Source: Eledone cirrhosa
Taxonomy: Eukaryota
DNA: 64,000 nucleotides
Direction: 5' to 3'
Assembly: GCA_964016885.1 (NCBI GenBank)
Contig: OZ024740.1
Location: forward strand, 190,402,001 to 190,466,000
Part shown: positions 5,899 to 61,160 of the stretch, one piece after another
How positions within the stretch are numbered: the stretch's first letter is position 1
Layout of the letters: every line of letters starts with the position of its first letter
The notes under the pieces: model-generated
The model's database searches: none
What the model was told of the DNA's origin: nothing
The model's input: the letters and a program-made list of their open reading frames with translations, nothing else
Translations under genes and position numbers: made by a program

Positions 5899-6902
5899 CT
5901 ACCTAAGGCGGGTAAAATTTCCGAGATCCATGGACGAGTTCTCTCCAGCGGTCTCTGTCCCTCATTATCGCTGCCATGTCCTGCGTCTCCAACAGACCAG
6001 TGTCTGACCTTAGGGCATCAACATACGTCAACCTTGGTCTTCCTCTTCCAGTGTGTCCATGTAGGGGCTCCCAAAGGAGCACTGAGTGCAATGTCAACTC
6101 TGGATATCGGTGAGCATGTCCAGCTAACCTCAGTCTCCTCTGTGTCACTTTTGAGCTGACTTTTGGGATTCTCCCATACAGCTCTGAGTTTTTCATCCTC
6201 AGTGTATACTGATTAATGTTCAGAGCCATCCTCAGCATTCTCGTGTAGCACCCATCCACTATCTGAGTCAGTTTCTTGGTCAGTGTCCAAGTCTCAGACC
6301 CATACAGCATCACAGACTCCACTACAGCAATGAAGAGGCGGATTTTTAGGTTTCTACGAAGGTCCGACTTCCACACCGATCTCAAGCTGTGGCACGCCGC
6401 CCAGGCCTTGCTCTTCCTCTCAACCACATCATCTTCCATATTCCCAATCTTTGCTCCCAAATACAGGAAGTCCTCAACCAATTCCAGCGGCTTCCCGCCT
6501 ACATTAGTGATCCCCTCTGGCTTCTCAACATTCTCTACCAGATATTTTGTTTTAGTCTCATTCATTCTCAGCCCCACACTCATCGACACAGTCTCAACCT
6601 CCCGCATCAAATCCTCTGCCTCCTTCACTGTATTTGTCACCAAAACTATGTCGTCGGCAAATTCAGCATCCGATACCTTTTTCGCCCTAACTCTCCTGCT
6701 CTGAGCCGGTGCTACAGTAAAGCCAGAGTCCTGGTGTTTTTCCAGTGCAAGGCGCATACAATAGTCCACTACGATGATAAACAGGTAGGGAGCCAATGCA
6801 TCTCCCTGGAGCACTCCAGCCAGTATCTCAAAGAACTCTGTCATCCCATCAGGTGTAATGAGTTGGGCTTTGGTGTTGGTGTAGAGCAGCGATACCAGGT
6901 CT
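5899..6902 (-). pseudogene. RTE-clade LINE 3' half (RT domains 4-7 and C-terminus)
   Basis: Open frame DLVSLLYTN...GVLQGDALAPYLF...EFADDIVL...MLYGSETW...RLRLAGH...GRGRPRLTY; stop at 5903 followed by short TAGGTAG tail and (AT)n. Confidence 0.92.
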
Positions 6903-7630
6903 GCCCTGACCCGGGGTGGTTGTACCTGTTAGGGCTCCATTTATGGGTTAAATAACTACCTTATTCGAGTGGCGCCGGTAAGGCATTGTCAGCCATTGAA
7001 AAGAAATATGGAGAGTCGATCTCACAGCACTAGGGTTAGAGCCCCTAATTACACTGTCAAGGAGCAGCCTGGTCGTTATGACTCTGCTGGCTTAGAGCCA
7101 CAGAGAGGGCCAGTGGATGATGGATCAGCTGTCTCTGAGACAAATATAAATAATGCAGTTTTGTCCTGCAGAAGAGCCATCAAAATGGGCACTTTGAATG
7201 TGAGGACTATTCGGACGCTGGAGAAGAGAGAGGAGTTGGGACATCTTTTCGAGGAGAGTGGTATACAGATACTTGCGATCCAAGAACACAGGTTCCTACA
7301 CGATGAGCCCGTGAGGAGTGTGATGATCGGGAAGAAGAGCCAGCTCGTGACTACATCGGCAGTGAAGAACACAACAAATGCTGCAGTAGGAGGAGTGGGT
7401 TTTGTGTTCAGTACAAAAACCAATCTGTTGGTGAGGGAAATAATGCCTATCTCCCCGCGAGTGTTGAGGGTGACCTTCAATGGAAACACAAGACTGACAG
7501 TCATCTCAGCCTATAGTCCAACCGAGGGGGACAGTGGCGTGAGTGCGGAAGAGTTCCATGAGGAGGTGTGTAGAGCTGTCAACACTACTCAGGCACACAA
7601 TATCCTGCTTGTTTTGGGGGACTTCAATAT
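6903..7630 (+). pseudogene. RTE-clade LINE 5' UTR and APE endonuclease N-terminus, inverted relative to the RT half
   Basis: MGTLNVRTI...ILAIQEHRF...GGVGF...SAYSPT...VLGDFN, then runs into (TA)n. Confidence 0.9.
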
Positions 7631-7641
7631 TATATATATAC

Positions 7642-7699
<58 letters not shown>

Positions 7700-7919: not shown

Positions 7920-9053
7920 TCTATGTAGGTAACAGAGCTTAATAGTTATGTAATAAACAACATAAGGCAACTATTCCATTTACCAGTGGTTTCTTAAAAG
8001 CAAAAGGTTTTGCTTTCAATCCACAGAATGAAAAAATCCTGATCTGTTTATTGAATTTGGATTTTAAAAACAAAAATGCAATCTATATGAAAGTGAGGCT
8101 GGAGAAGGAAGAAGGAGAGGAAAAATAAAATAAAACTACACATGCAAACACACACAAAAAACACGCACACACACACACACACACATTTATATATATATAT
8201 ATAGTAGAATAATCGAGTATCAAAAAATCGGCGCACCAGTTCACGATAGACAAAATTCGAGATGAGCGGCAGAGGGCTCTATAATTCAAATAAATCAGAG
8301 CTATAACTATCGTTAAAATACCGTCACACGTAGAATATGTCTACAATCAACCAAATAACCGAACAATTTCGATATGGAAGATTCGGGACACTCAGATAAA
8401 TTATCAATAAATCAATAAATGAAATGAATGTAAAAAGCATACCCGGACCCACTAGAGAGATGGTATATCTAGCTTCTTGGGTTTCTGTAAATCCTTAAAC
8501 CGTCCTCTATCAGCTCACATAAAAATATAAGACTTACAGACAACGTGGGACTGGAGTTACTTCTTCAACGAGCTTTGTCCGAAGGGATGAAAAGACAAAA
8601 CCCAGGCTAAAAATACGCACATGGATTTCAGCAAGGGAGATAACCTTTATATCCGCCAAAAATATTCGGAAAAATGTGGAATAACACATATCGAATAAGA
8701 GTGCTCAATAGACATGTTAAAATAAACAGGAGCTATTCATCATTTAATAGAATCGACAAAAAATGAACAATAAAATTAACTGGTCAATAGCTAGGTCTAG
8801 AGCTAAATATAGTAGACTAATCGAGTATCGAAAAATCGGCGCACGAGTTCACGATAAACAAATTCGAGATGAGCGGAAGAGGGCTCTATAATTCAAATAA
8901 ATCAGAGCTATAACTATCGTTAAAATACCGTCACACGTAGAATATGTGTACAATCAACCAAATAACCGAAAAATTTCGATATGGACGACTCGGGACACTC
9001 AGATAAATTATCAATAAATCAATAAATGAAATGAATGTAAAAAGCATACCCGA

Positions 9054-16181: not shown

Positions 16182-16212
<31 letters not shown>

Positions 16213-16214
16213 GC

Positions 16215-16550
16215 TGAGATAGCGAAATAGTCGATTTTCTCGATTTAGGATTTACAGAAACCTAGCGGAGATATTATATATTATATGTGATGTATATTTT
16301 ATGGTATATATCATATTTTGTTTATGATGTCGACGCGACGATCCAGGTTAGTAAAATTCTATCCTGAGTTCAGTTTTTTTTCGTCGCAATGGTCCCTGCG
16401 ACCCGACTATCAGTCGCTGTCTTCAATTTGCAAAGCTGTCTAAACGTAATGTTATAACTCCTGGGTAATATACCTATTGAGTGCTTAGCTGCACTCCGAG
16501 ATTGCATTCGTTAGCTTGTCTGCAACCAGAGCTTCGATGATGCTGTACTG

Positions 16551-16552
<2 letters not shown>
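16215..16552 (+). repeat. Divergent member (subfamily G) of the ~600-nt unit superfamily; opposite-strand partial copy at 17503-17680
   Basis: Shares GATTTAGGATTTACAGAAACC and TATTGAGTGC blocks with subfamilies E and F. Confidence 0.6.
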
Positions 16553-16621
<69 letters not shown>

Positions 16622-30170: not shown

Positions 30171-31133
30171 ATGGACTGCATGCAGGAAAAATGGGAAAAA
30201 TGTGAAATCAGGAGTCAGCGAAACTGGTCGAAGATTGAACTAGCGGTTTTGATCAAGGGGTGGACTATGGCTGATGGGTCTCCACCAAGCAAAAAGATGG
30301 CGGAGAACCTGAAGAGCCATGGGTTTATGAGGACCCTGGTACATATAGAGAGAAAGAGAAAAGAAATTGAGAAGGCGTATGTCCTCATAGCGCCTCATAT
30401 GGCGATGCTAAGCCGTGTCCTCAGGGAGGAGAAAACCGAAGGGAGGGATGAGGAGAAGGAGAGGGAAAAGGAAGAGGAAAAGGAAAGGGAAAAAGAAAAG
30501 GAGGAGAGCACAAGCACGGACCTGAAAGAAAATGATATACCCTCCGCTACAGGCAGGGAGGGCAGGCCGGGCAACCAACAAGCTAAGGGCAAAGGTGAAA
30601 AGCGAAATCACCTTCCGAAGGAGAACCAAGCGCAGAGGGACCAGTGGACAACTGTTCAAAGAAAGAACAGAAAGCACCGAGACACTGGGAGCAAAAAACA
30701 CCAAGTAATGTGCAAGTTTTTCAAGAACGGGACATGCTGGTATGGAGAGACAGGGATGGGATGCAGATTCGCCCACCCTAGGTCTCAAACGAACTATGCC
30801 CATCATACTCGCGCAACATGCCCCAGCCAAAGCCGAAATAAGCCGCTCCAGAAGTATGCTGATGTCGCGCGTGCTGCACCAACAAGGAGAAGGCACGCAC
30901 ATGCCGACGAGATACAGATGGCAGCAGCAGATCAGAAAAATTTTTTAGTGATGGCAGAGAAGATTGTGGGACAGCTGACCTGGCTGCATCGTCTCCAGAG
31001 CCAGGGTCATCCACACCAGCACTCGAGACCACCGCAGTTAAGGGACCCAGAGTGGCCGCCGCTGACACCAGACCAGGTGTCATACCGACAGCCATTACTG
31101 GCACCCCAAAAGTCACACCAGTGCTGCTGCTGA
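30171..31133 (+). CDS. LINE ORF1, 320 aa: Myb/SANT-trihelix-like N-terminus, charged linker, CCCH zinc finger
   Basis: ATG at 30171; NWSKIELAVLIKGW...KMAENLKSHGFMRT...RKRKEIEKAY; CKFFKNGTCWYGETGMGCRFAHP. Confidence 0.8.
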   Translation: MDCMQEKWEKCEIRSQRNWSKIELAVLIKGWTMADGSPPSKKMAENLKSHGFMRTLVHIERKRKEIEKAYVLIAPHMAMLSRVLREEKTEGRDEEKEREKEEEKEREKEKEESTSTDLKENDIPSATGREGRPGNQQAKGKGEKRNHLPKENQAQRDQWTTVQRKNRKHRDTGSKKHQVMCKFFKNGTCWYGETGMGCRFAHPRSQTNYAHHTRATCPSQSRNKPLQKYADVARAAPTRRRHAHADEIQMAAADQKNFLVMAEKIVGQLTWLHRLQSQGHPHQHSRPPQLRDPEWPPLTPDQVSYRQPLLAPQKSHQCCC

Positions 31134-34093
31134 ATGTCAGGGGCCTGGTGAAACTCAGCAACATGAGTAAAATTTCCTACCTGGGAGACTTAGCCATAAG
31201 CAATCAAGCACTATGCATGGCACTAACCGAAACGCACCTGACAAGCAGTATAGCAGATGCAGAAATACATATACCGAAATATACTGTATTTCGTTCGGAC
31301 AGGAAGGAGAGAACTCATGGTGGGGTTGCTCTGTATATCCGTGAAGATGTCACACCAATTGTTCTGTTGACACATTCAAACTCAGTCTGTGACACACTGA
31401 TAATACATATGAAGCAACTACAGACGGTAATATGTGTCACATATCGGCCGCCCGATGCCCCCAGTCATGAGGGTAAATTTGAGGATAGCCTAAGTAGGAT
31501 AGAAGAGGTCCTTGACAAACTGGACCAGGGTCTCAACATCCTACTGCTGGGAGACTTCAACCTACCAAAGGTCAAATGGCCTGAGGGCCACCTCCTCCCT
31601 GGAATGACGTCAATAGAACAGAGACAGACGGAATCCCTGCTGGCCCTCACACACAGGCTGTTCATGGAGCAAGCAATACTCCTCCCAACAAGAGGCTAAA
31701 ATGTCCTGGACCTCTGTTTTACAAACAACGAAGTGCTCATCCACAATGTAAAGGTGACACCAACAATTCTCTCGGATCATAACTTGGTAGAGCTAATGAT
31801 ATGTGGTCCAAGAGAACCAACAGAGACAAAACCACCAAGAAGCTCCGGGACGCTATCCAGCCTTAACTTCTACGGGGCTGACTGGAAGAAGATTAAGAGT
31901 GAAATCCGGAAGCAAACATGGAGTGCAAACATCGCCACACAAGACACTAACACACAATTTCAACACTTCATGACAACGATACACACCATATGCAAAAAGT
32001 GTGTCCCGGAGAAAGAGGCAAACAGACACAAAAATCTTATTCCCAGAGATAGGAAAATCCTTATGAGACGTAGAACTAAACTCTCAAACCAGTTGAATAG
32101 TCAACAAAACCAAAACAAGAAGGAATCCTATTTGAAACGTGCACTACTTGACACCGAGATTGCACTCAAGCTTTCACATGAGAATGAGAGGGCAAGGAAA
32201 GAGAACAGGGCCATAGAAAACATTAAAACAAACCCTAAGGCCTTCTTTAAATTTGCAAAAGAAACTGCCTCAGTACACTGCAAGATTGGACCACTCTTCC
32301 ACACGGACGGTTCATTAACCGAAAATCCCCAAGAGATATGTGAAATACTGAACGAACAGTACAAAAGTGTCTTCACATGTCCACTGAGGCCCATGCAAAT
32401 AACGAAGCCAGAGGAGTTCTTTGATGCCACAACACTACATCAAGAAATGGCAACCATCAACCACATAGACATAACGGAGGAGGATGTGGTGTACGCCATT
32501 GATGAAATTAGAACAGACTCGGCTGCTGGACCTGATGGATTCCCAGCAGTTCTCCTAAAAATATGTAAGCGGGCCTTAGCAACTCCACTGAAGATGCTCT
32601 TCAGAAGCTCCTTGGCTAGCGGTGTACTACCCAGGGAGCTGAAAGAAGGCACAATATGCCCTATCCATAAAGGAGGTAGTAGAGCGGAGGCCAAGAACTA
32701 TAGGCCAGTCTCCCTGACGTCGCATATCAGTAAGGTCATGGAGCGAGTCGTCAGAAAGAAACTAATCACTTTCCTCGAAGAAAATGACCGCCTGACTAGC
32801 ACGCAACATGGCTTCCGCCCAGGAAGAAGCTGCCTTACACAGCTGCTACATCACTACGACTGGGTACTGAGACAGCTACTAGAGAGCTCACATGTAGACG
32901 TGATATATCTTGACTTTGCGAAGGCCTTTGACAAGGTCGACCACGGAATGATATGTCACAAACTACACGGACTCGGCATAACTGGAAAAGTAGGTGAGTG
33001 GCTGCATGGCTTCCTGAGGGACAGAAGCCAGGCAGTCGCAGCAAATGGGGCCCTCTCGAGGGAAACACCGATAACAAGTGGGGTGCCTCAGGGGACAGTC
33101 CTGGGACCACTACTGTTTTTGGTGGCTCTCTCGGACATGCCCTCTGTGGTGCATGCAACAACATCCCTCACTAGCTATGCTGATGACACTAAGGTAGCAC
33201 AGGCAATCAAAAACCCGGCTGACGCTGCCCTCTTACAGCAGGATCTGGATGCCATATACAGATGGGCGGAAGAAAACAACATGCAGTTTAATGCTGGCAA
33301 ATTCCAAGCCCTACAATACAAACCTGCAAACACAAACACAAATATAGCGGAACACAGCTACACAGGACCAGGAGGGACCGATATCCCCGTGTCAAAATCG
33401 ATACGAGACCTGGGCATAGACATGAGCGATGATGCATCTTTTTCTTCACACATCATGAAGGTGGCGACAGCATGTAGACGATTCGCTGGCTGGATCTTGA
33501 GGACTTTCCTTACAAGAGATCGAGACACCATGTTGACACTGTGGAGGACTTTTGTCCTAAGCCGCCTGGACTACTGCTCCCAGCTGTGGTCACCCCATAG
33601 TGTCAAACTAACCACAGAGCTTGAGGCAATCCAGCGAAGCTACACCAAGAGGATTGCCAAGATGAGGGAGACAAGCTACTGGGAGAGGCTGAAGGAACTG
33701 AACCTCTACTCCTTGGAGCGAAGACGGGAGAGATACGCAGTGATCTACATGTGGAAAATCCTGGAGGGACTAGCACCAAACTTTGGCATTGGGAGCTGGA
33801 CCAACCGTCGAACAGGACGTCACTGTGTGGTGCCAAAGGTCCCGTCTTCCACATCTAGAATAAGGAGCAGGTATTGCAATAGCCTGGGATTCAAGGGCCC
33901 TCAACTCTTCAACAGGCTGCCGAGGCATCTGCGAGACTTGCATGACGTGGAGGTGGATGTCTTTAAGAAACATCTCGACACCTTGTTATCCAGGATCCCG
34001 GATGAGCCCACAGCAAGACACGAGGGAAACCTAAGGGCAGCAGCAACAAACTCCCTCCTACACCAGTGGCCAACCTATACAGGCTGGAGATAA
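31052..34093 (+). pseudogene. LINE ORF2 (APE endonuclease + reverse transcriptase) with one in-frame stop at 31697-31699
   Basis: LLNVRGL, LTETHL, GGVALY, YRPP, LGDFN, PTRG*NVLDL, SDHN; NYRPVSL, QHGFR, YLDFAKAFD, GVPQGTVLGP, YADD; ORFs 31052-31699 and 31733-34093 share a frame. Confidence 0.95.
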
Positions 34094-35160: not shown

Positions 35161-35220
<60 letters not shown>

Positions 35221-35228
<8 letters not shown>

Positions 35229-36689
35229 GATCGGGTATCGAAAAATCGGCGCACGAGTTCACGATAAACGAGATTCGACATGAGCGGCAGAGGGCTCAAT
35301 AATTCAGATGAATCAGAGCTATAACTATCGTTAAAATACCGTCGCATATAGAACAAGTCCACAATCAACCATACGATAAAAAATCGATAAAGGAAGATTC
35401 GGGACAAACAGATAAAAAATATCAATAAAACAATACGTCAATAATTTAAATGAATGTAAAATCATACCCGGACCCACTAGACAGGTGTTAAATCTAGCTT
35501 CATGGGTTTCTGTAAATCCTTAGACTGTACTCTATCAGCTCACATATAAATATAAAAGCCTACTAGAGCAAGCGGAACGGAGTTTTACTTTCTCAACGAG
35601 CTTTTTTCCTGGCGGTAGAGGAGCTAACTACCAGTGAAAAACGCACATGGCATTAGACAAGGGAGATAACCCCTATATCCGCGAAAACAATTCGAGTGAA
35701 TGTGGAAATACACATATCGAATTAGAGTGCTCAATAGACATGTTAAAATAAAACAAAAGCTATTCATCACTCAATAGAATCGACAAAAAATGAGCAATAA
35801 AATTAACTGGTGGATAGCTATGTCCAGAGCTAAATATATTAGAAAGATCGAGTATCGAAAAATCGGCGCACGAGTTCACGATAAACGAGATTCGACATGA
35901 GCGGCAGAGGGCTCAATAATTCAGATGAATCAGAGCTATAACTATCGTTAAAATACCGTCACATATAGAACAAGTCTACAATCAACCATACGATAAAAAA
36001 TCGATAAAGGAAGATTCGGGACAAACAGATAAAAAATATCAATAAAACAATACGTCAATAATTTAAATGAATGTAAAATCATACCCGGACCCACTAGACA
36101 GGTGTTAAATCTAGCTTCATGGGTTTCTGTAAATCCTTAGACTGTACTCTATCAGCTCACATATAAATATAAAAGCCTACTAGAGCAAGCGGAACGGAGT
36201 TTTACTTTCTCAACGAGCTTTTTTCCTGGCGGTAGAGGAGCTAACTACCAGTGAAAAACGCACATGGCATTAGACAAGGGAGATAACCCCTATATCCGCG
36301 AAAACAATTCGAGTGAATGTGGAAATACACATATCGAATTAGAGTGCTCAATAGACATGTTAAAATAAAACAAAAGCTATTCATCACTCAATAGAATCGA
36401 CAAAAAATGAGCAATAAAATTAACTGGTGGATAGCTATGTCCAGAGCTAAATATATTAGAAAGATCGAGTATCGAAAAATCGGCGCACGAGTTCACGATA
36501 AACGAGATTCGACATGAGCGGCAGAGGGCTCAATAATTCAGATGAATCAGAGCTATAACTATCGTTAAAATACCGTCACATATAGAACAAGTCTACAATC
36601 AACCATACGATAAAAAATCGATAAAGGAAGATTCGGGACAAACAGATAAAAAATATCAATAAAACAATACGTCAATAATTTAAATGAAT
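35221..36689 (-). repeat. ~600-nt unit superfamily (subfamily E), 2.4 near-identical tandem copies, period 617
   Basis: ATTAGAAAGATCG at 35221, 35838, 36455; no credible ORF. Confidence 0.92.
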
Positions 36690-36831: not shown

Positions 36832-37551
36832 TAATATATTTAGAAACACACAGATACATGCGGACACACACATATATACATGAATGCATCCGCACCCAAC
36901 TGTGAGTTAAGGGTGCCAACTTCACCGATGTTGCTCAATGAATGACTGGGACAGACCAATTCAGTTTGAACTAGACTGAACCAGTATCAGAGTTAAAAAT
37001 ACATTATGAAGAGAGAAGAAACATTTAGATATAATTAGTAATAAAATGTATCATACCTAAACCGTTCCTAAATTCCTCGACTACGTAGTTTCGTGGCATA
37101 AACAAAAACAATATATCAAATATATAGAGTCCTTGCGAGGTCTGCCGACTTATCAAGAGGATACCTCATTTTACTAGTCTCAAGAACGCGTCTACACGAC
37201 GTGAGAAAGAATCCCAAGGTATCCTCTTGATAAGTCGGCAGACCTCGCAAGGACTCTATATCTTTGATATATTGTTTTTGTTTATGCCACGAAACTACGT
37301 AGTCGAGGAATTTAGGAACAGTTTAGGTATGATACATGTTATTACTAATTATATCTAAATGTTTCTTCTCTCTTCATAATGTATTTTTAACTCTGATACT
37401 GGTTCAGTCTAGTTCAAACTGAATTGGTCTGTCCCAGTCATTCATTGAGCAACATCGGTGAAGTTGGCACCCTTAACTCACAGTTGGGTGCGGATGCATT
37501 CATGTATATATGTGTGTGTCCGCATGTATCTGTGTGTTTCTAAATATATTA
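36832..37551. repeat. Near-perfect inverted repeat, 335-bp arms, 50-nt spacer; each arm has an HHR-like motif
   Basis: Arms 36832-37166 and 37217-37551; CCTC-TTGATAA-GTCGGCA...TGCCAC-GAAAC-TACGTA-GTC-GAGG at ~37223-37308. Confidence 0.92.
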
Positions 37552-46810: not shown

Positions 46811-47048
46811 AGCTAGGAATTCAGAATGCAAGTTTTATACAGTATATAATTATTTGATATAACATATTTTAATCGGCTAATTGTGAGTTACAGGAAAATC
46901 TGAATATAAATCATACAATATATTAGCTTTTTAAATATGCTGGTGCTGTATGTCTATGAGATGATTAATGGTACATGCATTGGCACTGCATAGTGATCTT
47001 AATGCAATGCATAATTCCAAGATACGTATAAAGACACATACATATTAC

Positions 47049-47845
47049 ATTTTTTCAATCACATATTTTTTTATTTGTTTGACCCGAATTGCTTGGCCAT
47101 TTCTATGGTTATGCGGATGACGGTTTAACCATCTTTTTCAGCGTGTTTGGCCTTTAACGTATGTTTTAGCTCTGGTTCGTCAGAATTATTGAGCGCTTTC
47201 GGAAGTTGTTTTTCGCTAATTTATATTTGTATTAATCTCCAGAGTCTAGCTATTGACCAGTTAATTTTCTTGATTTTTTTTAGTTGATTCTATTGACTGA
47301 TGAATAGCTTTTGTTAACTTATAACCATTCTGTTGAGAGCTGAATTCGTTTTGTGATATTTTGCATTTTTGCAATAATATACACATACTGAATTTCTTCC
47401 CCCAAAATAAGGGTCGCCTCCCTTGTCGAGCCCCACGTGGGTATCGGAAACGGTCATTCCTTGCCTGGCACTTGAACTGTTGAGAAAGTGACTTCCTTGT
47501 TCAATACTCTTACCAGAAACCTAACATTATTTGTCTAAATGGACAGTACTTGATTTAGGGGTCGCAGAAACGCAAATGCTGGATTTTACCAACCATGCAG
47601 GGGCCCGGGTAAATTTTTTCAATCACATATTTTTTTATTTGTTTGACCCGAATTACTTGGTCCTTTCTATTGCTGCGCGGATGACGGTTTAACCATCGTC
47701 TCAGTGTGTTTGGCCTTTAACCTTTGTTGTACCTCTTGTTGTAGCTCTTGTTCGTCAGAATTATTGAGCGCTTGCCACACATCTCGGAAGTTGTTTTTCG
47801 CTAATTCCAAAGCCGAAATACGATTCTCGCTAATTTATATTTGTA
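47049..47845 (+). repeat. ~600-nt unit superfamily (subfamily F), 1.4 copies, period ~564
   Basis: ATTTTTTCAATCACATATT...TTTGACCCGAATT at 47049 and 47613; reverse complement of 60657-61160. Confidence 0.85.
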
Positions 47846-47862
47846 TATATATATATATATAT

Positions 47863-48007
47863 AACAAAGGAATTGTGGTAAGGAACCAGATGGGCCATAA
47901 CGCCCCAGAGTACTCAATACTTAGGGTAGTAGAGTGGGAAATAGGTAAAAGTATGACACCGACGTCGAAACGGCTTCAGCTCTGCCGTCGGGGTCATACT
48001 TATACCT

Positions 48008-48672: not shown

Positions 48673-51600
48673 TGTGGTGCTTTTCTATGTGGCGCGTTTC
48701 TATGTTAGTTCCGTGCGTTAAGGTTGCTGTTCAACCTAGTGGCATAACAAGTTATCGTTATAGGTAATCCAGTTAGAGGTTGTGAGTACTCTGAGTCGTG
48801 GATAGTGTTAAAGTACGGCTTTGTTTGACTCAACAAGATGTTTCCATATTTAGGCAGCGAGTTCGCGAGCATTCTTATGTAGGTTAAACTTGGAGTAATA
48901 ATAGTGAACGATTGAAGAGTAACATGGTCGGCTGTACAACAAGGGGCTTTATTTTAGGTATTAACAATTGTTTCATTGATCAGGTGAGTCTAGAGGCCGC
49001 TAATCGCTCGACGTTGCGTCACTCGATCTCCAGTATATTATTTACCTCTGATGAAATCCTCAAAATACAAATAATGCATACATGGCATGGTATATATATA
49101 GAGAGAGAAATAGCGTAGAATCTAAACACTAACAGCAATAATACAATATAATTATAAATAGGTAAAGAAGTTACAGATGTAAAAAGTAAAAAGTACGAAA
49201 ATACAAAGTAATGAAAGATATAAACAAATAAAGATAAGTGAGATCATATAAGGACAGAATGCGATAGTTGATACTAGTGGTGGTGGTGAGTAAGTGTCTG
49301 TAAAGGGATACTGGGGTGGGTGTAGTGCTAACATGAAAAGCCAAATTCAAAATATACATAGACACGTGTAGAGTATCTGAAGTAGTAACAAATGACAGAT
49401 AAATAAAAACAATAAATTAGAAATTAAGTAGGATTTACTAGTATGAGACCCAAAGGGTAAGGATGGATGGGGGGGGATATGTGTGTGTGTGGTAAATGTT
49501 TCGCTGATTGTCTTGTGCTAACGCGGTTGATGTAGTGTCAGGGAGAGTGGGTGAAAGAGCTGTGAAGAGATTTGATCTAGTGACCAGTCAGCTATTTGAC
49601 AGCTAATAGCTGTGTTATCGTATGTATTCCGTACGGTAAAATCCAGGTGGTTCAGTTCTAATTGTGGGATTGCTGGGACGAATCACAGTGGTTGGAAATT
49701 TGTGAACTTGGTAACTATTTTGTGCCTACAGATAATTGATTTTCCTATTTTGCTGTTAAGCAGCATCTTATCGTACCTTGAAATATGGAATAGCTCTATA
49801 TTGCAAAGTCTACAGTGGGACATTCCATTGTTGTAGGTCCTTTCTCCCGATAATTTTGTCCAGCTAATCATTTACTCCTGGTTTGTGTTTTAAAACTGCC
49901 AGATTTTATTGGCGAGCGTCGTAGAGTTCTCCAATCTACAGTTTTTCATGGAATGTCTGAGAATAAACTATCTTTTTTTAGCTCCCCAGCCGTTGAACCT
50001 ATGTAGTGCCATGGGAAGTTGCCTGAATTTATAGTAAATATGTACATCATACTTGAATCCAGGCATCTATATTGTAGTGGGCACTTATCTGGTAGCTGGC
50101 AGTTACAGTTTGGGGATTTTCTGTGTGCAGGTTCTCCGTTGCGGTTTTGCATGTTGTTATGCGTAGGTTGAGATTCAGGCCTATTAATTTGTTTTTGTGA
50201 TGCGCCCTGATGTGTGTGTGGTTGTGATATTGTTATGTGTTTGCGTTTTGTATTTGGTGCTATGGTGTATGTTAGTAGGTTATTTTCTTTATAGATTCGT
50301 TTGTGGTTGATTTTATATATGTGTGATACTATGTTGGCTGCAGTAGAGTAAGATAGTTTGATAGTTTTTCTGTTAAAGATTATATGGTGTTTGTGTAGTT
50401 TAGGGAAGTGTTTTTCAATTGGCTTAAAGAATGTAGAATGTAGTTTGATTGTTATAGAGGAGTTGAATATTGGATTGAACTATAAGTATTTCCTATCTCT
50501 GGAGTTTCTATAGTTCCTAGGGATCCTTAAATTAGTGTTCGGTTCAGTTATTTTGAATGCTCGTTGTATAATTCTATGTTTATTCCTATGTTTGTTATTT
50601 CTATAGGTGTGGGTAGTGTACCAATCGTTAGGTTCGTTGTTGCTGTCTCTCTCTGGTATGTATTCGACCCCTCTTTATTTTCTGCCTTATGTAAAGCTAT
50701 GTTATAATAGTTTGCATGTCCGTTAACATTCTCTAGGTCAGATGATAGGCGGGATATTCTAAGTGATATACAATGTGCTATGGAGTTAATTATGGATCGA
50801 GGGGGGTTTGAGTTATGACTAATGTAGTTTAGATTCTCGTTATTTGTATGGAAGGGCTCTATTAATCCTGTGTTTAGGTTGAGTGTTACATGAAAGAAGT
50901 TTCCTTTTTTAGAGTTAAGTTCGACGGTGGTGCCTAGGCTAGTTTGTCGAAGAAGACTGATATTTTCCCTAGTGTTTCCATGTTTTGATTATTTAAGTTT
51001 TTAGCTAAAAGGATGTGTCGTCTCTATAAATTCCTCCCTGGAGGTTATTAAATTCCTTATATAAGTTGTGCGCTATATGTATTGCCACTATGTATGTTAC
51101 CTGCGCTGAGTCGCTAGATCCCATTGTGATATCGAAGCTATTGTGTCTGTTTTTTCCTTCCCAGTAACTATTTTCGAATCTAATGATAGTCCTCCTAGCA
51201 GCTAGTATTATTTTAATATCATCAGAGATTAGGTTCTAGTTTTTCAGGGCAAAGGCTAACGCATTATCTAGGGTGAAAGGGTAGATGAACGAGTAGTTAA
51301 TGGAGTCATTAATGTCAAACTGTACGAAGTTGGATGTTTCCTTACTGTCTATTTTGCTGAAGCAGTCTATTGCTTCTTTAGTGTTACCCCATAGCTTAAT
51401 TACTAGTTTGTCCTTGATTTGGGCTATTACACTATCTAGTATATACTTGCTAATTATACATATATCCGATTTCGATGGGAATATTAATCTAATTGTGGGG
51501 TCTTTTTCGAAATTAATGTTGTGATCTTTTAGGTTATATGTGAGGTTACAAGTGGTTAGAAGTTCGGTTCTATCAGATATTTTCTGTTTTTGTTTTACTA

Positions 51601-54600
51601 TGCTATGTCCTTCCTTATTAATGTTAGTGTGATTCTGTTGTTTTCTTGTATTTTTAGTGTAGTTTACGGCGTATAAAGTTATTGTATATATTAAGTTTCA
51701 TGTTTGATGTTTTGTCCGCTTTTACTATAATACCTTTGGTATTGCGTAGTTTTCTTAGAAGCGCATTGATGTCGTTTTGCAGTTTGTTGTGATGTGTCCG
51801 TTTTTTTGTATTTGGTTCCATCTATCATGTTGATGAGGTCTTTTTCGAAGGCATCGAGCTGGAGGTTGTTCGGTGGTTTCTTGCAGAATGTGAATCGGTA
51901 TTATTCTCTAGTAAATTCCTCTTTTATTAGCGTGTCCTTTATCGTAGTGATAGGCCTTTGGCAGAGATAGTGTATTATCCAATTTGGCGGAGAAGTATTT
52001 AGAGAGTTGTAATGTCGCCACGAGGAACCAGGTTTGGTAGAAAGTTATGATAGGAATGTCGACAACGACTTTAGCTTGATTTTCATTATTTATTAACCAA
52101 GGTTAAAAAGTGAATTAGGCTGGCATGCCAAGAGAAATGAAATAATTCAATTAAGATTACAAGAGAAAATACGGTCGACTGGCTGAGGCGTTTAGCCAAT
52201 TCCGTAGTAAAATTGTTGTGTCGTTACATATTGTTTGTGCTGGCGAAGAAAAAGAACAAGTGGTGTTTACATTAGCACGGTCTAGCTGGAACTGATAGCG
52301 TCCTCAAATCTTTGCGGGCTATTTCTCCCTCAGAACGCGTAGGGATACATCCTTTTCTACTGGCGCTGATTGGTTGAGCTGAGCCAAATCACGCACAGAG
52401 AATGTATGTGAGCCCGCGGAATGTAGGTCACTACGTCACCTCCGAGCAGATTTTTAGCCGAAAATCGTTAACGATGAAGCCGAGGACCCCAGATTATTGA
52501 ATGAGCAAGAAAAAATGCTGAAAGAGCACATCAGTGAAAAAATAATTGAGCAGAAAGATGCATGCAAGAAAATAAAATGAGGCGCGACGGACCGTGTTGA
52601 GCCGCTGTCAAATGACTAGCTGTTTTGTAGTTTATACGTGACCACCAAAGGTCTACCAGAAAACAGATAAAGTCTGACATGGGCGAAGTTGCTGTTCTTG
52701 CATTAAATGTTAATGGTAAGTGTTGTACCAGTAGCTGTGGACGAAGCTATTATGGTAGTTTACCAGTGCTGGCAAGAAGATGATGGGTAGGCGAGAAAAT
52801 GTAGGCCTCCCAGATGTAATGCCGCATGTGCTAGGGAGCCAGGAAAAAATGGCTGGTGGCTTTGAAAAGAAAAAATAGCAAGTTGAATCTGTAGGTGGGT
52901 TGCAGTTCCATAATTCGGGCGAATCCACAGAAGTGTTGAAAATGCTGACAAGTCCAGTTCTATTTGTTGTTTTCCCGGTGAGTTGGGCAAGACAACAAGA
53001 TAGAGGTTGTTATTGACGATGAATGTGCAACGAGATGCGAAACTGCTTGAGTTCAGCTGCAAAAAGCATTCTCGTGTTGCGATGCAGGTGAATTAAGCTG
53101 TAAGTGTCGATAGCATGTTTTGGTACCTCCAGAAGGTGAAAATTGATCTCGCATAATATTACGACGCTTGAAGATCACATACCATAGATAACAACATGTT
53201 GGTGTGTGTATATATGCAGGCATGTAATACAGCAAAGAAAATATGTGCGTGCGGTCACATATACAATGATAGAGAGAAATGAATTTTCATATAATACAGT
53301 TTTTAAAAAAATAAATGTCCAAAATAAATGCATGAAAAAAGAGGAATAAAGAAAGAATTGTTTCTTTTCTTTTCACAAAAACTTCGCTTCTTTTTTCTTT
53401 GGGAACGCTCTTACTAGAGTTGTTGTTGTTAAAGCAAAGTCACAATGAATCTTCTGTAGATTAGAAGTCGAGCGTTGAAGAACCTAGTGTCACCAACATG
53501 GCAGCCACGTCTGACGCCATAATGGTGAGAAAACTAATGTCTTAATTTCTCGAGTCCTTGTGGTAATGAGACAGAAGGTATGGTGGTTGCGTCGGTAAAG
53601 TAACAAGCCGTTCCCTGGTGTTGGTTAATAATTAGCCATGTGTTGCTGCTGATGGCTGGTACTTGGTATAAGCCGTTTTGAAATATCATCGTGCCGAAAA
53701 GCTTTTGAAATACTGCTATTTTTTTTCTTTAAGAAATATTCTAAAGAAAATTTGAACAATAAAAAAAATAATTTTCCGTGAAAATTACTTGGCAAGAAAA
53801 TCCAAGATGGCCTATTGAAAAATGCGTCTGTGATAAAGAAGCCGTCATGTGGCACGATGCAGCCAATCAGAGGGCTGGGATTAGAGAAGACAAGCTGTAC
53901 GCGGGAAAACAAAATTCCTGAGACTCCATTTGTAATTTCAACAGAATGCCGAAAGCAAAATTCTATATCCAGAGAAATTCTTTTTTTTGTGTTGTATTTT
54001 TGTGTTCGTCTGTATGCGTGAGTTACTAGTGTTACTATGAAAGTTATGTCAGAAATATTGTGCAGGCCGCGTGCTTCAGCAAATGGAATATTATGAATTT
54101 TATGGACTTACGCTAAGTGAGTCTAGCTACCCGATTCGAACATTCCAAATGTTAAGCCACTCCACATTGCCATTAAAATGAATGGCGAATTCAAATAGGC
54201 TGCGTTTTCATGCTTAATCGTCGAGGGCCGCCAATTTGGTTGAGATAGTGTATTATCCAATTTAGCAGAGAAGTATTTAGAGCGTTGTAATGTCGCCAGG
54301 AGGAACCAGGTTTGGTAGAAAGATATGATAGGAATATCGACAACGACTTTAGCTTCTTTTTCATTATTTATTAACCAAGGTTAAGAAGTGAAATAGGCTG
54401 GCATGCCAAGAGAAAGGAAATCATTCAATTAAGATTACAAGAGAAAATACGGTCGACTGACTTAGGCGTTTAGCCAATTCCGTAGTAAAATTGTTGTGTC
54501 GTTACATATTGTTTGTACTGGTGGAGCAAAAGAACAAGTGGTGTTTACATTAGCACGGTCTAGCTGGAAGTGATAGCGTCCTCAAATCTTTGCGGGCTAT

Positions 54601-55003: not shown

Positions 55004-55888
<885 letters not shown>

Positions 55889-58473: not shown

Positions 58474-60560
58474 ATATATATATATATATACAATGATATT
58501 AAATAAATGAAAACGAAATTTATAAAACCTTATTTATTTTATTATATATATATATCAGGGGTAACCAACACAACATTGGTACGCTTTCATCAGATAACAT
58601 ACACAGTTTATTTTATAAATAGAGACATACCCATGAAAATCATACCTTATGGGTTGGAAATTCATTGGATGGTGGAAATATATTAGGGATTATTCAAACT
58701 TATGTATGAATATGCAAATGAATATGTAAATAATTGAAAAACAACCGTTTATTTAAATGACACAGGAGAAAGAGAGAGAGAAAAAATGATGATTGAACAA
58801 ATTACGAGATAGATAGAGGGAAGAAATAGACAAGAGAAGATGAACATAACGTTAATTTTAGAAAAATATATTCTAAGTATAAATATAATATTATGTGTAT
58901 TTACGATTATTCGTTGTTTAAAATTCGTTTCTAATATAATATTTGCTGTTATAAGTAGATAGATAAATACATAATTAAATAAATAAGTAAGTAAATAGAT
59001 AAATAGATAAATAAATGAATTGATGGGTATATCGTGTTATAGACAATTGTTTTAATGAGTTATGAGTGATATTGGTTTTGTATTTCAAGTAAGTAAATAT
59101 TAAGTTAAATTAAATTAAATCAACTGAGTTAATAAGGATATTTATATATGTTAAAATGTGAAGATACGGAAAAACTCCAGTTGTGTTTATTTATTCGTTA
59201 GTATGAGACTATTTTGTCAAAATAAGTATAAATGTTGAAATATATATTAACCAGAATTAGTTAGTGGTTATAAATCTAATAAAATATATGGAAGACATAT
59301 TAAAAATTTGAGGAACATTTTTTTTTAAATAATTCATAAGAGTTAAGTAATGTTTAAAAAATAAATAAGTTTAAAAAAGGATGAAATATTAAATAAAAAA
59401 AATAAAAAATAAAGAATTAAAAATTATTAAGATTAAGATTAAAATTAAAATTAAAATCAAAATTAAAATTAAAATTAAAATTAAAACTTTACAAAAATTA
59501 GAATTATATATGTATATATTTTATCACACTTTAAGAAGTGAATTATAGCAAATGTTATAGATATGATTTAGAGAAATCAATATATTAAAACCAAGTGTAT
59601 AATATTGTGGAAATAAGTAGAAATATTATAAGTGTAATTATAATTTATATATAGAAGGATATTGGTTTTGTATTTAAAGTAAGTAAATATTAAGTTAAAT
59701 TAAATTAAATTAACTGAGTTAATAAGAATATTGATATATTTTAAAATGTGAAGATATGGAAAAACTCCAGTTTTGTTTATTTATTCGTTAGTATGAGACT
59801 ATTTTGTCAAAATAAGTATAAATGTTGAAAGATATATTAGCCAGAATTAGTTAGTGGTTATGAATCTAATAATATATATTGAAAACATTAAACATTTGAG
59901 GAACATTTATTTTTAAAATAATTCATAAGAGATAAGTAATTTTTAACAAATAAATAATTTTTAAAAAGGGATAACATATTAAAGAAATAAAAATAAAAAA
60001 TAAAGAATTAAAAATTGTTAAGATTAAAATTACAATTTAAATTAAAATTAAAATTAAAATTAAACTTTACAACAATTAGAATTATATATGTATATATTTT
60101 ATGACACTTTAAGAAGTGAAATTATAGCAAATGTTATAAATATGATTTAGAGAAATCAATATATTAAAACCAAGTGGATAACATTGTTATGAAAATAAGT
60201 AGAAATATTATAAGTGTAGTTATAACATATAAATAGTTCTAAATGCTGAAATCAGGCAATGTCTACAAGAATTAAATAAATTCGTTATTAGATTAATAGA
60301 GTTCTTACATTTATGTATGACAACATTTCCTCAACACACAATTTGCAGAATCTAGATAAAGCTGCGTTTCGGTGCGTGTGTTCTCCGAAATTATTTCCCA
60401 AGTTAATGAAAAATCCATATTTTTTGCATTTTAATTTCCATAACAGGTTTGAAAGAGAAGTTGAAGATTTTGTATAAAATATTTTGAAAGAGCATTTGTG
60501 ATTATACCAGCGATTTATACATTCTGTAGAAGATGCACCTATATATATATTTTGTTGCAT
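58290..60560 (-). mobile_element. 5'-truncated family C PLE: GIY-YIG remnant (60240-60560), AT-rich UTR with 590-bp tandem duplication, HHR-like 3' end (58490-58600), inverted copy 58290-58420
   Basis: IYIGASSTECINRWYNHKCSF...TSLSNLLWKLK...CKLCVEE...SCRH; GATATTGGTTTTGTATTT at 59068 and 59658. Confidence 0.75.
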
Positions 60561-60564
60561 CTAT

Positions 60565-60656
<92 letters not shown>

Positions 60657-60660
<4 letters not shown>

Positions 60661-61160
60661 AATATAAATTAGCGAGAACCGTATTTCGGCTATTGGAAAT
60701 TAGCGAAAAACAACTTCCGTGATGTGTGGCAAGCGCTCAATAGATTCTAACAAACCAGAGCTACAACATACGTTAACAGGCCAAACACACTGAGACGATG
60801 TTTAAACCATTATTCGCACAGCAATAGAAACAACCAAGTAATTCGGGTCAAACAAAATAAAAAAATATGATTGAAACATTTACCCGGACCCCTGGATGGT
60901 TGGTGAAAATCCAGCATTTGGGTTTCTGCGACTCCTAAATGAAGTACTGTTCGCTTAGACAAATAATGATAATCTTTTGGTAAGATGATTGAACAAGGAC
61001 GTCACTTTCTCAACAGGCTTTTAGTTCAAGTTTCAGGCCAAGGATTGACGGTTACCAATACGCACGTTAGGCTCGACAAGGGAAGCAAACCTTACTTTGG
61101 CGGCTGAATTCATTAAGTGTATTATTATTGCAAAATTGCAAAATATCACAAAACGAATTA
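60657..61160 (-). repeat. ~600-nt unit superfamily (subfamily F), less than one copy
   Basis: Reverse complement of 47340-47845; flanked by (TA)n. Confidence 0.85.

Follow-up and report, generated by a model that had tools for sequence, protein, structure and literature searches.

The window, by which we mean the whole stretch of 64,000 nucleotides of Eledone cirrhosa DNA analysed here (contig OZ024740.1), carries on its minus strand a short array of tandem units, the putative processing site of which was described in an initial annotation as a covarying, half-hammerhead-like fold at 35395..35525. Inspection of the sequence recovered all the elements named there: CAGAAAC (G12 = 35510), ACCCA/UGGGU, CUAGA (35497-35493) with UCUAG (35481-35477), GUC (35473-35471), and then CGGG with CCCG at 35403-35400. 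The variants cited for other copies were also found, with CUGGA/UCCAG and CGGG/CCCG at 60.9 kb, CAGG/CCUG and AUC at 16.3 kb on the plus strand and GCC at 47.6 kb, and the observation that no CUGANGA follows the downstream helix was borne out. The C block lies upstream instead, outside the annotated interval, as UUGAGAA at 35596-35590. The motif is thus not half a hammerhead; with high probability, judged from sequence, it forms the 3′ half of a type I hammerhead fold that is complete but has a non-standard core. This hammerhead likely cuts transcripts of the ~617-nt unit into monomers, which a Penelope-like enzyme would probably then copy back into TA microsatellites. The features are as follows.

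35222..36689, minus strand: tandem array of a 617-nt unit, two full units and one partial, adjoining a (TA)n run at 35164-35222
35606..35609, minus strand: pseudoknot 5′ strand GGAA (GAAC or GGAC in other subfamilies)
35597..35601, minus strand: stem I 5′ strand GCUCG
35589..35596, minus strand: predicted catalytic C block U3-U4-G5-A6-G7-A8-A9 (UUGAGAA, 35596-35590) and the adjoining unpaired A
35512..35588, minus strand: extended stem II, with GUAAA/UUUAC beside the core and the pseudoknot 3′ strand UUCC at 35577-35574
35507..35511, minus strand: extra A and the G12-A13-A14-A15.1 block
35472..35507, minus strand: stem III ACCCA/UGGGU, a bulge and the inner CUAGA/UCUAG helix
35466..35473, minus strand: GUC triplet followed by CGGGU, the 3′ strand of stem I; the cut is predicted between 35471 and 35470
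35400..35404, minus strand: downstream competitor strand UCCCG (ACCCG or ACCUG elsewhere), able to pair with the stem I 3′ strand
36017..36226, minus strand: second hammerhead copy of the array, U3 = 36213, predicted cut between 36088 and 36087
8196..9052, minus strand: insertion of a sister subfamily, one unit and ~250 nt, with a U3·G8 core (UUGAAGA at 8568)
60639..61159, minus strand: subfamily F copy with the full hammerhead, U3 = 61013, GUC 60889-60887
47046..47863, plus strand: decayed F-like insertion, U3 = 47480, triplet mutated to GCC
55137..55829, minus strand: related but decayed insertion with an AUC triplet, its C block lost by deletion
16209..16555, plus strand: subfamily G copy, 5′-truncated inside stem II and without the C block, with a long stem III insert, AUC and then CAGG/CCUG

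The array has its 3′ end fixed at the (TA)n and its 5′ end 16 nt downstream of the would-be third cut site, and the 5′ end of the 8196..9052 insertion (9052) coincides with the nucleotide that directly follows the predicted cut. When a model of the alignment described below was run on the window, six copies scored 113-176 bits, partly by construction. About 140 nt past the 5′ end of the array starts a 335-nt inverted repeat (36832-37551; 99% perfect, 50-nt spacer) that ends at a long TA repeat, its arm opening with the AATATATTTAG motif of the unit junction. A separate ~590-nt tandem dimer at 59068-60236, very AT-rich and 90% identical, gave no match to the model of the variant hammerhead. The long ORFs at 30863-34093 (+) and 5903-7682 carry endonuclease and reverse-transcriptase motifs and are presumably of the ordinary non-LTR retrotransposon type.

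Lining up the cores from the fetched loci revealed a conserved UUGANRA 81-90 nt upstream of GAAA; before it stands a strand (ACCUG, GCUCG or ACCCG) that forms pairs with the CRGGU following GUC. Among 57 distinct cores, 49 possess the C block, and in 47 of these a cut-site block can also be recognised; eight cores are without the C block (truncated, deleted, mutated or unrelated) and two without the cut site. By comparison, a heptamer of this kind occurs in 4.7% of random 42-nt windows from the same loci. The predicted block order, C-G-S with all blocks in cis, is that of a classic type I hammerhead, and a permuted hammerhead is ruled out by it. A different C block candidate, CUGAUAGA at about -30 in subfamily E, was rejected as it is not conserved and has no stem I partner, and an interpretation of AGAAAC, GUC and CCGAA as parts of a hairpin or HDV-like ribozyme was set aside because the helices it needs were, by eye, not conserved between subfamilies. 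Alternatively, the motif could be one half of a substrate that is completed in trans, or could represent a new class of ribozyme based on GAAAC...GUC and CGGG/CCCG; the covariation of the latter helix is in keeping with such a view, as is the lack of a hammerhead in Rfam searches of the window at E<=1 and of 35330-35700 at E<=10, but the C block, the stem I 5′ strand and stem II all lie in cis at fixed spacing and no CUGANGA-like block follows the downstream helix, which makes this very unlikely. Of the initial proposal of a variant or new ribozyme, the variant hammerhead thus stands and the new class does not, all three blocks being there in type I order, and completion in trans loses its ground with the C block and the stem I 5′ strand 81-90 nt upstream.

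Among the 47 cores with both blocks, the heptamer is UUGAGAA in 23, UUGAUAA in 10, UUGACGA in eight and UUGACAA in two, with UUGAUGA, UUGAGGA, UUGAAGA and CUGAGAA seen once each. Position 7 takes all four bases and position 8, opposite U3, only A or G, as expected for positions 3-9 if these are hammerheads. The 3/8 combination is U-A in 35, U·G in 11 and C·A in one core, and the triplet is GUC in 38. In the alignment columns U4, G5, A6, A9, G12, A13, A14, A15.1-U16.1 and H17 are invariant or nearly so, an invariance that is partly imposed for the G block, which formed part of the search patterns, whereas U4-G5-A6 was absent from the core search patterns. The pair expected beside the core at 10.1-11.1 is replaced by an additional base on either side (A·A in 39/47, C·A in 8/47), and the usual G-C pair lies one step outward. 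The 3′ extra A was fixed in the search patterns and was therefore tested by a separate search with other bases, which returned 33 matches with a replacement against 6198 keeping A.

The searches covered the 3.0 Gb genome in 1796 contigs, in which the motif has about 6,200-6,500 matches. The core pattern matched 6198 times and its reversed control not at all, and the U3 pattern with correct spacing matched 6476 times against 53 for the control. A C3 pattern gave 270 matches against 25; in the first 100 of these, counted by hand, 22 belong to a subfamily with the textbook C3-G8 in an identical frame, 31 (tandem copies included) to a C3·A8-mismatch subfamily, and the remainder are single changes or unrelated sequence. 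The C3-G8 subfamily (loci L132-L148) has a long AU-rich stem III insert, the base of stem III is weak in many of its copies, and it was seen as single copies in the 8-kb loci. U3·G8, common here, is simply a wobble. Mutagenesis leads one to expect a poor C3·A8 core, and the mismatch adjoining the core may slow the ribozyme. In the 2 of 64 parts of the viral contigs that were scanned, 121 loci matched the pattern, none of them with the complete set of three stems.

To describe the fold across the family, 81 cores were clustered into 30 groups and 23 medoids aligned. Excluded were a false match of unrelated sequence, a group in which stem III carries a long insert, and five medoids that were decayed or near-duplicates; part of the rows derive from a pattern that enriches for copies altered in stem III. 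Over the 26 pairs of stems I-III, the inner helix and the pseudoknot, 83.9% of cells are paired compared to 76.4% in shuffles (0/500 reaching it) and 26-44% in slid controls. Thirteen of the 26 pairs are changed on both sides (reached by 5/500 shuffles), and the covariation score of 0.318 was reached by none of 500, in support of the covarying, hammerhead-related fold first annotated at the processing site. The number of additional pair types did not differ significantly from shuffles (92/500). Stem I is 93.7% paired, with one doubly changing pair (U-A 8, C-G 7, U·G 6), and stem II is 87.8% paired with 4/5 pairs changing; the three stem III core pairs are nearly invariant and so say little on covariation. 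A 4-bp pseudoknot (94.5% of cells paired, with an A-U to G-C change) joins the strand 5′ of stem I to a bulge in the ~75-nt stem II, and in 95 cores its types are GAAC/GUUC (52), GGAC/GUCC (5) and GGAA/UUCC (6), with 32 unmatched. Kinship of the sequences can itself beat shuffles, so that the covariation is support and not proof. The stability of the 223-nt fold at 35612-35390 was no greater than that of its shuffles (z = -0.77), and its minimum-energy structure has stems II and III and the downstream competitor helix, without stem I.

The ~617-nt unit occurs many times over at 98-100% identity, its copies forming short arrays spread over numerous contigs (at least 134 matches, with 40 of 1077 candidates scored). 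The units are non-coding, tandem and dispersed and carry one type I hammerhead each, which are the features of animal non-LTR retrozymes. Insertions sit in (TA)n; the 3′ end is fixed, ~254-257 nt beyond the predicted cut, and the 5′ end varies. Junctions with TA repeats were sought from about -18 to +12 of the cut, which gave 114 matches; among the 100 listed, counted by hand, 57 lie at +1..+8, 21 upstream and 22 are unclear. Two of the 57 are exactly at +1, including 9052 in the window, and most are at +5..+8, where a TAT matches the target repeat. To allow for this resemblance, a matched 30-nt window elsewhere in the unit was run as a control for one subfamily, giving 14 matches with one at TAT followed by G, compared to 18 junctions at the TAT followed by G beside the predicted cut. 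One fixed and one variable end together with head-to-tail arrays are, as general background, compatible with rolling-circle DNA transposition, and the units might accordingly be a Helitron-like element or a satellite with an incidental RNA fold. We give this scarcely any credence, as the G·U-tolerant covariation, the pseudoknot, the hammerhead-specific conservation and the concentration of variable ends at the predicted RNA cut all speak against it.

We then compared the lengths of 20 insertions ending at +1..+8 with those of 20 controls, made up of seven ending just upstream of the cut and 13 distinct control-window loci. Single ~250-nt pieces reaching from the cut to the 3′ end made up 13 of the 20 insertions, with one unit more in five and more than that in two. 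Such minimal inserts were found in 2/20 controls (Fisher p = 0.0008) and in 0/7 of the junctions just upstream of the cut. Stalling on a rolling template would leave the length distribution unchanged, so that two template pools are likely, linear RNA starting at the cut and circular or multimeric RNA. At loci L192, L196, L198 and L199 the 5′ junctions near the cut duplicate the first 11-15 bases, as if the enzyme had re-primed at the template end.

These ends could also have arisen from a fold that is inherited but slow or dead, the 5′ pile-up being due to reverse-transcriptase stalling, a transcription start or a protein nuclease, with spread from uncut multimers. Most junctions fall short of the cut by 4-7 nt, where stem I ends on its 3′ side, and the C3·A8 subfamily has spread, both of which fit this account, as does a lizard Penelope element for which the passages of PMC11167929 drawn on here describe insertion in vitro without cleavage and no reads ending at the cut. 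A rolling-template stall should, however, give array lengths like those of other stops, against the 13/20 and 2/20 minimal inserts seen, and the core is conserved in ~30 sequence clusters, with free variation at position 7. We therefore regard a slow or dead fold as improbable, though with more to be said for it than for the other alternatives, and the ends of the genomic copies suggest that the hammerhead is cleaved in vivo. In the 5′-end search for the C3·A8 subfamily one anchor had 0 matches and another eight, none far upstream of the cut; the short inserts among these are without the core, and one longer insert was U3-A8. That this subfamily has spread in tandem copies indicates that an intact core is perhaps not needed in every round.

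The CRGG strand after the triplet can pair either with the stem I strand that lies upstream or with CCYG on the downstream side. The CGGG/CCCG helix is not stem I but a competitor for the stem I 3′ strand, and its reported covariation was confirmed: it is 84.7% paired, with one pair G-C in 12 rows and A-U in seven and a score reached in 2/500 shuffles, stem I and the competitor each resting on one doubly changing pair. The predicted probability of stem I in the unit of the window is 0.75 if the RNA stops 10 nt past the cut and 0.04 once the downstream strand is present, when the competitor reaches 0.43. The mean over the 23 rows, some of which are decayed copies, falls from 0.31 for the short RNA to 0.05, values that exclude the energy of the pseudoknot.

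From these calculations we infer a folding switch in which cutting would come first and blocking later. Stem I would form once the cut site emerges in transcription, and the RNA would be cut after GUC; the CCYG strand, transcribed 20-70 nt later, would then capture the 3′ strand of stem I, so that the product is released and re-ligated circles are protected from a second cut. Reverse transcription would start at a fixed internal point ~250 nt past the cut, and on a cut linear template it would run off at the cut to leave a ~250-nt insert, while on a circle or an uncut multimer rolling synthesis would yield arrays with random 5′ ends. The full proposal, that a large hammerhead invisible to searches is timed by RNA folding alone, cutting once during transcription and then being locked by a covarying downstream strand so that circles survive, and that the genome records both the cut-linear (~250-nt inserts) and the circular (long arrays) templates, is put forward tentatively, with a chance we judge to be a little short of even.

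Mobilisation of the units by a Penelope-like enzyme is probable given that insertion is into (TA)n, that the 3′ end is internal and fixed, and that units are found joined to elements. At locus L131 (3082-3490) the normal 3′ end of a family unit is joined to a 5′-truncated ORF with reverse-transcriptase and GIY-YIG-like motifs, which we take to be Penelope-like by these motifs and for which Pfam named no family, and at L172 (1117-1216) such an end is joined directly to a 5′-truncated Penelope-like copy; both joins are possibly template switches. In the window, broken Penelope-like ORF fragments at 49946-51858 (-) are 24-37% identical to the L131 ORF. The Penelope-like element is abundant in the genome, with intact 719-aa frames. 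Of 30 Penelope-like ORF loci, one has the variant ribozyme upstream and a second the 3′ part of a related unit (E = 5.9e-10), so that two of 30 show a unit joined to a truncated element. Ten of the 29 other ORF loci have a different hammerhead, small and of type I, in which each side has an unpaired purine beside the core; derivation of the units from the abundant 719-aa element is not supported. This small hammerhead lies ~300-350 nt upstream of the ORF match at L154, L156-L158, L162-L165, L167 and L180; its unpaired bases by the core are A and G, and four copies have C at position 4. A hairpin of the GCUC...GAGC type downstream of the cut is shared by 46/73 units and 15/29 ORF loci, compared to 13/4050 shuffles, by a pattern drawn after both sequence sets had been seen. 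A profile of the 3′ part of the units did not match the terminal repeat of the Penelope-like element itself. The fixed internal 3′ end is in line with the internal initiation shown for the lizard Penelope element (PMC11167929, in part).

The combination of U3 with a mismatch beside the core was missed by Rfam here and is of a type discarded in descriptor searches, and thousands of copies thus went unseen; claims that some Penelope clades are without hammerheads, as made in part of 10.1101/2021.04.23.441226, could be rechecked with a relaxed core. How the circles of animal retrozymes escape self-cutting is left open in the sections of PMC7229834 considered, and the covarying, mutable blocking helix is a candidate answer. 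If the folding switch is real, self-pairing would explain how a circle survives re-cutting, and the insertions would provide in vivo evidence for ribozyme-cut RNA as a Penelope-type insertion template. The insertion ends suggest cut RNA templates in vivo, in contrast to the cleavage reported as dispensable in vitro in the same passages of PMC11167929. The natural 3/8 series of U-A, U·G, C-G and C·A on one scaffold is a ready kinetic panel.

Comparison with known systems, based on parts of each source cited, places the units closest to previously described elements of animals. Like the metazoan non-LTR retrozymes (PMC7229834; bioRxiv 10.64898/2026.07.22.740005), they are non-coding, low in GC, arranged head-to-tail and dispersed, with one type I hammerhead per unit, in a host genome that has Penelope-like elements (PMC7229834). 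At ~600 nt they are longer than the 170-400 nt of PMC7229834 and within the 51-972 bp of bioRxiv 10.64898/2026.07.22.740005, and their hammerhead differs from those of PMC7229834 in its large size, stable stem III, non-standard core and pseudoknot. For the majority of metazoan circles the ribozyme is predicted to be free (PMC7229834), whereas here a covarying helix would block it.

The natural core variants of PMC3088659 likewise include U3-A8 covariation, stem I-II pseudoknots and a tolerated U·U at the start of stem II, U3-A8 being a natural variant active in vitro. Section 8 and the other passages used of that survey make no mention of an A·A or C·A mismatch or of U3·G8; matches mispaired beside the core were rejected in it, and the pair replaced by a mismatch here is the most conserved after A15.1-U16.1 (PMC3088659). 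The permuted SGC, CSG and GCS hammerheads are similarly hidden from standard searches (PMC10085705), but the order here is the classic C-G-S. Several components are thus already published, namely U3-A8, pseudoknots and the U·U mismatch (PMC3088659), and U3-A8 with a single unpaired base after A9 (PMC4209133). A literature search that took in few subscription papers, without supplements, returned neither the combination of U3, mismatch and pseudoknot nor genomic 5′ ends at the cut.

Penelope-like elements, among them Cercyon of Schistosoma, have hammerheads that share type I topology, U3-A8, a long stem II and an unpaired base between 9 and 10.1 followed by G-C (PMC4209133). These are minimal motifs without a real stem III that need dimers (PMC4209133), whereas the fold described here has a stable stem III, a second unpaired base (A) opposite the first and a 4-bp pseudoknot. 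Together, these comparisons suggest that the units would work like an animal non-LTR retrozyme, with a variant of a known hammerhead.
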